Source of the DNA: Escherichia coli
GTDB taxonomy: Bacteria; Pseudomonadota; Gammaproteobacteria; Enterobacterales; Enterobacteriaceae
NCBI RefSeq assembly: GCF_024298765.1
Contig: NZ_CP101210.1
Direction: 5' to 3' (one strand)
DNA: 64,000 nt
Made by a program: the position numbers. Below, in pieces: positions 49,601-52,600 of this stretch (within the stretch, counting starts at the first letter, position 1; each line of letters starts with the position of its first letter).

Positions 49601-52600
49601 AAAACTGCGTGTTACGTTCGCCCTGGACTGTTGCGATCGTGAAGCCATAGACTGGGCCGCAAGCACGGGAGGTTACGATAAAGCGACAGTGCAGGATGTC
49701 ATGTTAGGAGCGATAGAAAAACGCTTTGGCGATAAAGTACCGGAACAGTCCATCCAGTGGCTGACAGATAACGGTTCAGCGTATAGAGCGCATGAAACAC
49801 GGCAGTTCGCCAGAGAGTTGAATCTGGAGCCCTGCACAACGGCAATCAGCAGTCCTCAGAGTAATGGAATGGCAGAAAGGTTCGTGAAAACGATGAAGGA
49901 AGACTACATCGCGTTCATGCCGAAACCGAATGTAAGAACGGCATTGCATAATCTTGCAGTGGCGATCGAACATTACAATGAAAACCATCCGCACAGTGCG
50001 CTGGGTTATCGCTCTCCGCGAGAATATCGACGTCAGCGGGTAACGTTAACTTAAGATACACCCCCTGTCTGGAAATAAGGGGGCAAGAACAATGATCAGA
50101 TTCCCTGGTGAGTAAGAATTTTACTTTCTGAACTCCTCTGAGAGTATTGACTTGGAGAAACACCAAAATAACGTCTAAATACATAAGTAAAGTATGAGAC
50201 ACTGGCATAACCACAGACCTTAGCTACTTTACTAATAGGATAACAACGAGTGCTGAGTAAATATTCAGCCATTTGCATCCTCTCATCAAGTATGATCTTA
50301 CTGAATGATACCCCCTCTTCTTTCAATTTCATCTTTAGTAAACTTTCGCTGAGATATAATCTTGATGATATATCCTTAAGACGCCATGGTGCAGATAAAT
50401 CCGTATGAATAATCGTTTTAACTTTAGCCCCTGTGCTTTTCAAACATCCAAACAGAAATACTCCAAATTGTTTTTCAGAAGAAAATGCAGAGAGACATGT
50501 AAAAGCAATAGACTCATCAAAAATTTCTATGTATTCAGCACAGTGATTAGCCCAACTAATTAATCCTTTAATTAAACTGAAGTCAGCAAAGTTTATTTTT
50601 AAATAAGATGGATATTCCCTACAATCAGAAATATCCCTTAAGTTATTAGCTTTCAAATAGCGACTAATAAACTCAGCGCCAAAATCCGCCACTATCACTC
50701 TTTCAGGATATGTCAGGAAAAAATCTCTAGAGCTAGAGTCGACAAGTACAGATGAACCTCTCTCCAGAAACACACTCTCTTTTCCGAAATAAACATCAAA
50801 GGACTCCAAAATCAATATAACTGAACATGTAGTTGCCATATCATCCACCCAATTTAACTGAAACCTGGATGAAGTATATGCATATAAAGTTCACTTTGCC
50901 AAACTTCAGTATAAAAAACCACATAAAAAATAGGGTGTGATAAAAAATACCGTAACAATAAAGCAAAGGATTATAAAATCCGTTACAGTTACAAATGATA
51001 CTCAAGAAACAATTCCTTAGGAAAAACTTATTTACAGCCAATAAGGGTAATGACTCGAACTTATTGATAGTGTTTTATGTTCAGATAATGCCCGATGACT
51101 TTGTCATGCAGCTCCACCGATTTTGAGAACGACAGCGACTTCCGTCCCAGCCGTGCCAGGTGCTGCCTCAGATTCAGGTTATGCCGCTCAATTCGCTGCG
51201 TATATCGCTTGCTGATTACGTGCAGCTTTCCCTTCAGGCGGGATTCATACAGCGGCCAGCCATCCGTCATCCATATCACCACGTCAAAGGGTGACAGCAG
51301 GCTCATAAGACGCCCCAGCGTCGCCATAGTGCGTTCACCGAATACGTGCGCAACAACCGTCTTCCGGAGCCTGTCATACGCGTAAAACAGCCAGCGCTGG
51401 CGCGATTTAGCCCCGACATAGCCCCACTGTTCGTCCATTTCCGCGCAGACGATGACGTCACTGCCCGGCTGTATGCGCGAGGTTACCGACTGCGGCCTGA
51501 GTTTTTTAAGTGACGTAAAATCGTGTTGAGGCCAACGCCCATAATGCGGGCAGTTGCCCGGCATCCAACGCCATTCATGGCCATATCAATGATTTTCTGG
51601 TGCGTACCGGGTTGAGAAGCGGTGTAAGTGAACTGCAGTTGCCATGTTTTACGGCAGTGAGAGCAGAGATAGCGCTGATGTCCGGCGGTGCTTTTGCCGT
51701 TACGCACCACCCCGTCAGTAGCTGAACAGGAGGGACAGCTGATAGAAACAGAAGCCACTGGAGCACCTCAAAAACACCATCATACACTAAATCAGTAAGT
51801 TGGCAGCATCACCAGCCTTCTTGAGGCTACCACCTGTTTTCAGGTGTCATTCAGACGTGATTTGCCCCAGATTGGGAAAGCACGCTTTTTTCTCAGCTAT
51901 CGTCCTCTTATTTTGCCGTTACATTTCTTTTTGCACTCTAATGATTAATTTACAATAATAATATCGGTAATTATTGAGTAATAATAAATTGATTATTGCA
52001 AATGTAATTTAATTCCATCTTCGCGTTATATTCCAATCTTTAATCTCCGCATGGAACAAGTTGCATGCGTGACTATATTAAGACAACTTATAACCACCAA
52101 AACATTTGCTTTGCAAGCAAAAACAGTGACCATTGACTCTAAGAAAATTCCGATCTATTGTTAGGGTCATCAAAGTTACTTAACAGTATTCCGAAATGAA
52201 AATACAAAGCAAGCTAATTGTCTTATTAAACATTATTATTGCATTTATATTATTTGAGCTTTTAGCTCAAAAATTTGGTTTGAGTACATTATTTTAAAGC
52301 AAGATAAACAATATCGGGCACTCTAGTTTTTATAATTAACAATTAAACGTCCATGAAATGTTATTTACTTTTCTTCGCTATTGTCATATCTTAATATAGT
52401 GGCTTACGCCACTCTACTTTCATCACATTTTGTACGTTTATGTACTCGCCATGAAGCTCTTTCATGGCGATTTTTTATTCTTAATCCAAGAACATACTCC
52501 CTACCTATAGCAAAATCACTTTTTTAACAAAAGAATAACGTATTTAGGTAATCATTACGAATTTACCCTATAGGTGCTACTGGCCATTCAATATCCGGTG

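Follow-up and report, generated by a model that had tools for sequence, protein, structure and literature searches.

An intact IS1 without target-site duplication, associated with a local 550-bp deletion in a lambda-like prophage of Escherichia coli

Simple insertion of IS1 normally makes a target-site duplication of 9 bp (occasionally 7–14 bp), and deletions adjacent to the element are an established part of IS1 behaviour; their promotion by IS1 was reportedly described by Reif and Saedler in 1975. The attachment site attB of phage lambda lies between ybhC and ybhB. Adjacent deletions and recombination between insertion sequences are the usual reasons for missing duplications (PMC11708052). 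In E. coli O157:H7 EDL933 the prophage-encoded AraC-like protein PatE (z0321, OI-8) is an activator of the gad and hdeAB acid resistance genes (PMC10877973). The IS1 studied here lies beside an AraC-family regulator gene in a 64,000-nt stretch of E. coli DNA (the window), and was found to be almost certainly associated with the loss of ancestral DNA. The locus resembles a classical IS1 adjacent deletion in that the IS1 is intact, the loss starts at the end of the element, no duplication is present and the flanks are collinear with those of relatives, and differs from it in that the event is natural, fixed and inferred by comparison, with a loss of 550 bp that is non-coding only. The phenomenon is thus one already known, a textbook IS1-associated deletion.

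DNA identical to that of the window is found in E. coli chromosomes, for example that of strain E7, in the gene order bioA, ybhB, IS3-family fragments, AraC-family regulator, IS1, tfa, long tail fibre gene, lom and J. A 15-bp core of the lambda type, conserved in all but one base, was located at the prophage-chromosome junction beside ybhB. From the gene order and the presence of this core by ybhB, the IS1 lies in the non-essential "b" end of a prophage of the lambda type that occupies the lambda attachment site. The features of the locus are collected in Table 1. The IS3-family fragments are oppositely oriented, the piece with orfA lying on the minus strand and that with orfB on the plus strand, so that an older rearrangement is present beside the regulator gene; the same opposed fragments are present in phage mEp332.

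Table 1. Features of the IS1 locus, in window coordinates
Feature	Coordinates	Strand	Remarks
Lambda-type attachment core, prophage end	49084–49098	minus	14/15 bases of GCTTTTTTATACTAA; 90 bp beyond ybhB
IS3-family element fragments	49323–50054		Left of regulator; annotated ISEc48 partial in Sakai
AraC-family regulator (YdeO/GadX-like)	50096–50839	minus	Alternative GTG start at 50848
Left junction 9-mer gccaataag	51037–51045		IS1-less relatives continue with TAAGACAC..., start of lost 550 bp
IS1 (IS1A-like)	51046–51813	minus	Transposase reads right to left
IRR (right terminal inverted repeat)	51046–51068	plus	22/23 against consensus, 1 mismatch
insB' frame	51061–51564	minus	167 aa as listed, open; NCBIfam IS1 family transposase, E 1.8e-42
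insA	51483–51758	minus	91 aa, open; NCBIfam IS1 family transposase, E 7.5e-26
-1 frameshift motif TTAAAAAAC (A6C), joins insA to insB'	51501–51509	minus	IS1 position 305, transposase orientation
IRL (left terminal inverted repeat)	51791–51813	minus	Consensus GGTGATGCTGCCAACTTACTGAT, 23/23, 0 mismatches
Right junction 9-mer agccttctt	51814–51822		In IS1-less relatives preceded by ...GAATATTCCA, end of lost 550 bp
AT-rich non-coding block	51814–52562		32% G+C; between IS1 and tfa
tfa (tail fibre assembly)	52563–53144	minus	Right-hand landmark, conserved gene order

The IS1 proper is complete, with a length of 768 bp and its transposase genes on the minus strand; the earlier note had rightly placed an IS1 at 51037–51822, a span that takes in 9 bp of flanking DNA at either end. 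The IRL and IRR consensus sequences each gave one match in the window, with none expected by chance from shuffled sequences, and the search for both ends detected no second IS1 in the window that could hold the partner flanks. Compared with the IS1A of K-12 strain MG1655, 765 of 768 nucleotides were identical, and the length, the terminal repeats, the insA and insB' frames and the A6C motif are all shared with that element, in agreement with the assignment to the IS1 family; the window copy differs from it by three substitutions (one of them in the IRR) and by having no 9-bp duplication. In identical RefSeq DNA the annotation is that of an IS1A-family transposase with programmed frameshift, and the transposase has the same protein accession as that of IS1 copies elsewhere which are flanked by fresh 9-bp duplications. 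The description of this IS1 as intact was accordingly confirmed by both ends, both frames, the frameshift motif and the near-identity to IS1A.

The mismatch in the IRR is a change from C to G at position 12 of the repeat (window 51057), a position at which the two IS1 end consensus sequences used for matching both have C. The G is common to the copies at this locus in L001, L011, L012 and L013, and is not present in K-12 IS1A, in the IS1 copies of L008 and L009 or in the two other IS1 copies of L012. A single 31-nt exact match was observed elsewhere (strain BA92, H347), which suggests that the variant occurs beyond this locus.

No duplication was found at the window IS1 in the canonical register at lengths of 7–14 bp, just 0–5 bases being matched (2 of 9 positions for the 9-bp flanks). 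When any shared k-mer of the 30-nt flanks was allowed, the longest was the 4-nt word AGCC, offset by 10, and 4 nt is the commonest longest shared word for random 30-mer pairs drawn from the window. With the same script, perfect 9-bp duplications were recovered at other IS1 copies (CTGAACATG for the IS1 of L008 and GTCGATAAA for an IS1 of L012), so that the test for duplications works. The earlier note had reported the lack of an obvious duplication, and this holds, gccaataag and agccttctt being unrelated at 7–14 bp and at any offset; an 8-bp or offset duplication, which the note had named as grounds for refutation, was looked for and was absent, the only shared word being the chance-level 4-mer.

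To define the sequence that preceded the IS1, the locus was compared with those of relatives. The genome set searched comprised 5,426 complete E. coli genomes; 653 genomes had a match to the left flank and 1,342 had one to the right flank. In the IS1-less prophages of strains NC19 (L003) and 23CRST021 (L005), located at the same ybhB site, homology to the left flank extends up to ...gccaataag and homology to the right flank begins at agccttctt..., with 550 bp between them. The same arrangement was found in the cultured phage mEp332, the record of which terminates at the att core and the 550 bp of which shows 8 differences from that of L003, and phages PhiR70_1 and ev099 gave at least 99% match across the whole IS1-less stretch. 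Both flanks were found 550 bp apart in 89 genomes. These phages and the IS1-less attLambda prophages share with the window the regulator, the IS3-family fragment, the AT-rich block and tfa (98.5–99.1% identity) and, unlike the window, keep the 550 bp and have no IS1. The 550-bp segment is absent from the entire 64,000-nt window, and flanks joined directly, with neither IS1 nor the 550 bp, were not found in the 5,426 complete E. coli genomes, in which only two-piece matches spanning 950 bp were obtained.

Since the same flanks stand exactly 550 bp apart in the IS1-less relatives, the IS1 replaces 550 bp, base for base. Both sides are collinear with the relatives and keep their orientation (ybhB, IS3 fragments and AraC-family regulator on the left, AT-rich block and tfa on the right), and the loss begins exactly at the terminus of the element, with no inversion or translocation. 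The duplication is a trait of simple insertion and not of the element itself, and its lack in the window is explained by the loss of the 550 bp. The comparison with IS1-less prophages suggested in the earlier note thus recovered the pre-insertion sequence and, of the IS1-mediated deletion or recombination that the note had put forward, supports a deletion of local extent associated with the IS1. A distant IS1 copy as recombination partner was ruled out by the conserved order and orientation on both sides.

The lost 550 bp is composed of 100 bp upstream of the AraC-family regulator, a 340-bp copy of the K-12 yodB-serU region (97% match) and 110 bp of phage arm. The 340-bp copy (L003 4647–4986; missing in the window between 51045 and 51814) is formed by 278 bp of the yodB-serU spacer and the last 62 nt of the tRNA-Ser gene serU; gene calling gave no tRNA gene for the 550 bp or for L004, this 62-nt serU fragment being all that was found. 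The 340-bp segment is a relic serU attachment junction together with adjoining chromosomal DNA. A scan of the IS1-less locus against Rfam gave nothing above threshold within the 550 bp. On the minus strand of L003 at 5886–6086, close to its truncated tfa, a sub-threshold match to Rfam IS009 was observed (89.7 bits, gathering score 117).

The O157:H7 prophage Sp1 at thrW (L002, L010) runs from the left flank 440 bp into the 550 bp, and the serU-integrated lambdoid prophage of L004 runs from the right flank 450 bp into it. Because each part of the 550 bp continues a flank in an independent context, its presence represents the older state. The regulator module, common to O157 Sp1, and the tfa arm, common to serU prophages, overlap exactly in the 340-bp segment, as if the two had been joined by recombination through this segment or by aberrant excision. 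In other genomes the AT-rich block is found as an arm of serU-integrated lambdoid prophages. The proposal of an original separation between the AT-rich block and the regulator gene was correct as to their different origins, but in IS1-less prophages and in cultured phages the two already adjoin in unchanged orientation, with 550 bp more between them. The seam between them is the serU relic, which predates the IS1 and lay within the lost DNA.

Some further features were observed to the right of the IS1. The first 85 bp (51814–51898) is found alone, at 94–100%, in very many other E. coli genomes, in some of them beside capsid genes, and contains a short hairpin (cacctg tttt caggtg). A strong terminator-like hairpin, with an 11-bp stem followed by a T run, is located in the AT-rich block at 52446–52480 (plus strand), and the second IS1 of L012 sits immediately after it. 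In the tail fibre gene (53144–56551, 1135 aa) the central region is long, repetitive and rich in alanine and serine. Different fibre genes occupy this position in L003, L005 and L013, showing that prophages which are otherwise alike exchange this module.

With short queries spanning the junctions, the left one was detected in 88 genomes, the right one in 78. The counts from long queries (114, 121 and 132) are inflated and unreliable as junction counts, nearby pieces being joined in such matches, and IS1-less genomes alone already cover 82% of the 4.2-kb query. The four loci inspected (L001, L011, L012 and L013) all have both junctions, with identical sequence. The difference of 10 was considered as a possible real excess of left-only junctions, which might have pointed to the anchored end; as both junctions are present in 4/4 sampled loci, it was not taken as evidence of one. 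One inherited event behind the approximately 78–88 carrier genomes would be the simplest reading of these sequences. The carriers include many poultry isolates.

Other IS1 copies were observed at related loci. In L008 an independent IS1 (2883–3650) with the perfect duplication mentioned above is located at the start of the regulator gene, on the paoD side, and in L009 an independent IS1 without duplication (3602–4369) joins a point inside the 550 bp to rclA. Both insertions lie within a few hundred bp upstream of the regulator, in other genomic contexts, and the AT-rich region upstream of this gene looks like a recurrent IS1 target. In L012 (6831–8442, strain 2023CK-01509) the IS1 of the window is kept and two more copies are added. 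One of these has no duplication and joins the equivalent of window position 52475 to the phage ral gene, so that most of the prophage, including the tail and head genes, is missing. The remaining copy has the duplication GTCGATAAA at its two ends.

For the origin of the deletion, a simple insertion of IS1 followed by an IS1-promoted adjacent deletion of 550 bp appears reasonably probable. An IS1A-type element would have transposed into the "b" end of the lambda-like prophage, between the AraC-family regulator gene and tfa, and this insertion would have yielded the usual 9-bp duplication, at GCCAATAAG or at AGCCTTCTT. Intramolecular replicative transposition of the element to a second target, 550 bp from the first, would have followed, and this adjacent deletion would have removed the DNA in between and one of the two duplication copies, to leave a single intact IS1 flanked by unrelated 9-mers. 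We infer this two-step order and the transpositional mechanism on grounds of parsimony and of the known behaviour of IS1.

The inner junctions of an intermediate would be ...GCAGCATCACC joined to GCCAATAAGTAAGACACTT and ...GAATATTCCAAGCCTTCTT joined to GGTAATGACTC. Chimeric queries were run against the 5,426 complete genomes. The junction made of the IS1 end, GCCAATAAG and the start of the 550 bp was not found in them, the best matches being the unrelated nearby IS1 insertions of L008 and L009, and the query made of the end of the 550 bp, AGCCTTCTT and the IS1 start gave matches to IS1 alone. No other deletion end-points from the same anchor were found in this set. As the complete genomes contain no intermediate, the adjacent deletion and the two other local routes considered below are not separable by observation.

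The second route, which we regard as unlikely, supposes two independent insertions of IS1 in direct orientation, at GCCAATAAG and at AGCCTTCTT, each with its own duplication, followed by homologous recombination that removed one copy and the 550 bp. Its product would be exactly as observed, IS1 has repeatedly hit this neighbourhood (L008 and L009, and L012 with its three copies in 3 kb), and the example of L012 shows that this prophage can acquire direct IS1 copies in tandem. It calls, however, for a recombination on top of two insertions spaced by 550 bp, where the adjacent deletion needs one insertion and one transposase-driven event, and neither of its inner junctions (IS1 joined to GCCAATAAG-TAAGAC..., and ...TATTCCA-AGCCTTCTT joined to IS1) is present in the 5,426 complete genomes.

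A one-step insertion-deletion, in which IS1 would be captured at a break or deletion intermediate with no staggered cut of the target, seems more doubtful still. It would account for the lack of a duplication at the window IS1 and for the lack of an intermediate in the databases, and insertion sequences that lie centrally in deletions and lack duplications have been reported (PMC11708052). One-step capture has been proposed for some IS movements, but the proposal rests on IS5 and IS481 cases, and other deletion-associated cases were classed as ordinary adjacent deletions (PMC11708052). Both ends of the window IS1 are, moreover, precise to the nucleotide, as when the transposase joins them in the normal way, which argues against capture. 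Finally, a simple insertion with a duplication decayed by point mutation, or a later insertion of the 550 bp in the relatives, would agree with the bare absence of a duplication and nothing else, and is refuted, as both junction flanks are identical to the ancestral sequence and have not decayed, the 550 bp is a continuation of either flank in contexts independent of one another, the K-12 chromosome among them, and no flank-to-flank junction was found among the 5,426 complete genomes.

The regulator gene next to the IS1 codes for a protein identical in 246 of 247 residues (difference M170R) to ECs_0287 of prophage Sp1 of O157:H7 Sakai, which we take to be z0321, Sp1 being CP-933H/OI-8. In Sakai this gene is located at the end of Sp1, beside the same partial IS3-family element. 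The protein gave matches to YdeO/GadX-type NCBIfam families that were below the family cut-offs; the near-identity to the O157:H7 gene and the C-terminal AraC-type DNA-binding domain are in agreement with a regulator of the PatE type. In contrast to PatE, the window regulator belongs to another prophage with another attachment site, and has an IS1 about 200 bp upstream: the end of the element lies 206 bp upstream of the ATG and 197 bp upstream of the alternative GTG. The best promoter-like site upstream of the gene (50902–50873, 10/12, a consensus match only) is in retained DNA. That the IS1 and the loss of the 550 bp alter expression of the regulator in the carrier lineage is improbable and a matter of speculation; such an effect could come from the loss of upstream silencing DNA or from transcription out of the co-oriented IS1. 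Separately, and with equally little confidence, the substitution in the IRR may reduce the mobility of the window copy.

The locus provides a clean natural case of IS1-associated deletion, fixed in about 80 sequenced strains. Its value is for annotation and for prophage history: the missing duplication is explained, and the sequence that preceded the IS1 was recovered to the base from cultured phages. The lost DNA is non-coding and small (550 bp), and with it the deletion erased the serU relic, the only local clue to the separate sources of the regulator module and the tail-fibre arm. The IS1 now lies a short distance upstream of a regulator gene, the O157:H7 counterpart of which controls acid resistance genes.
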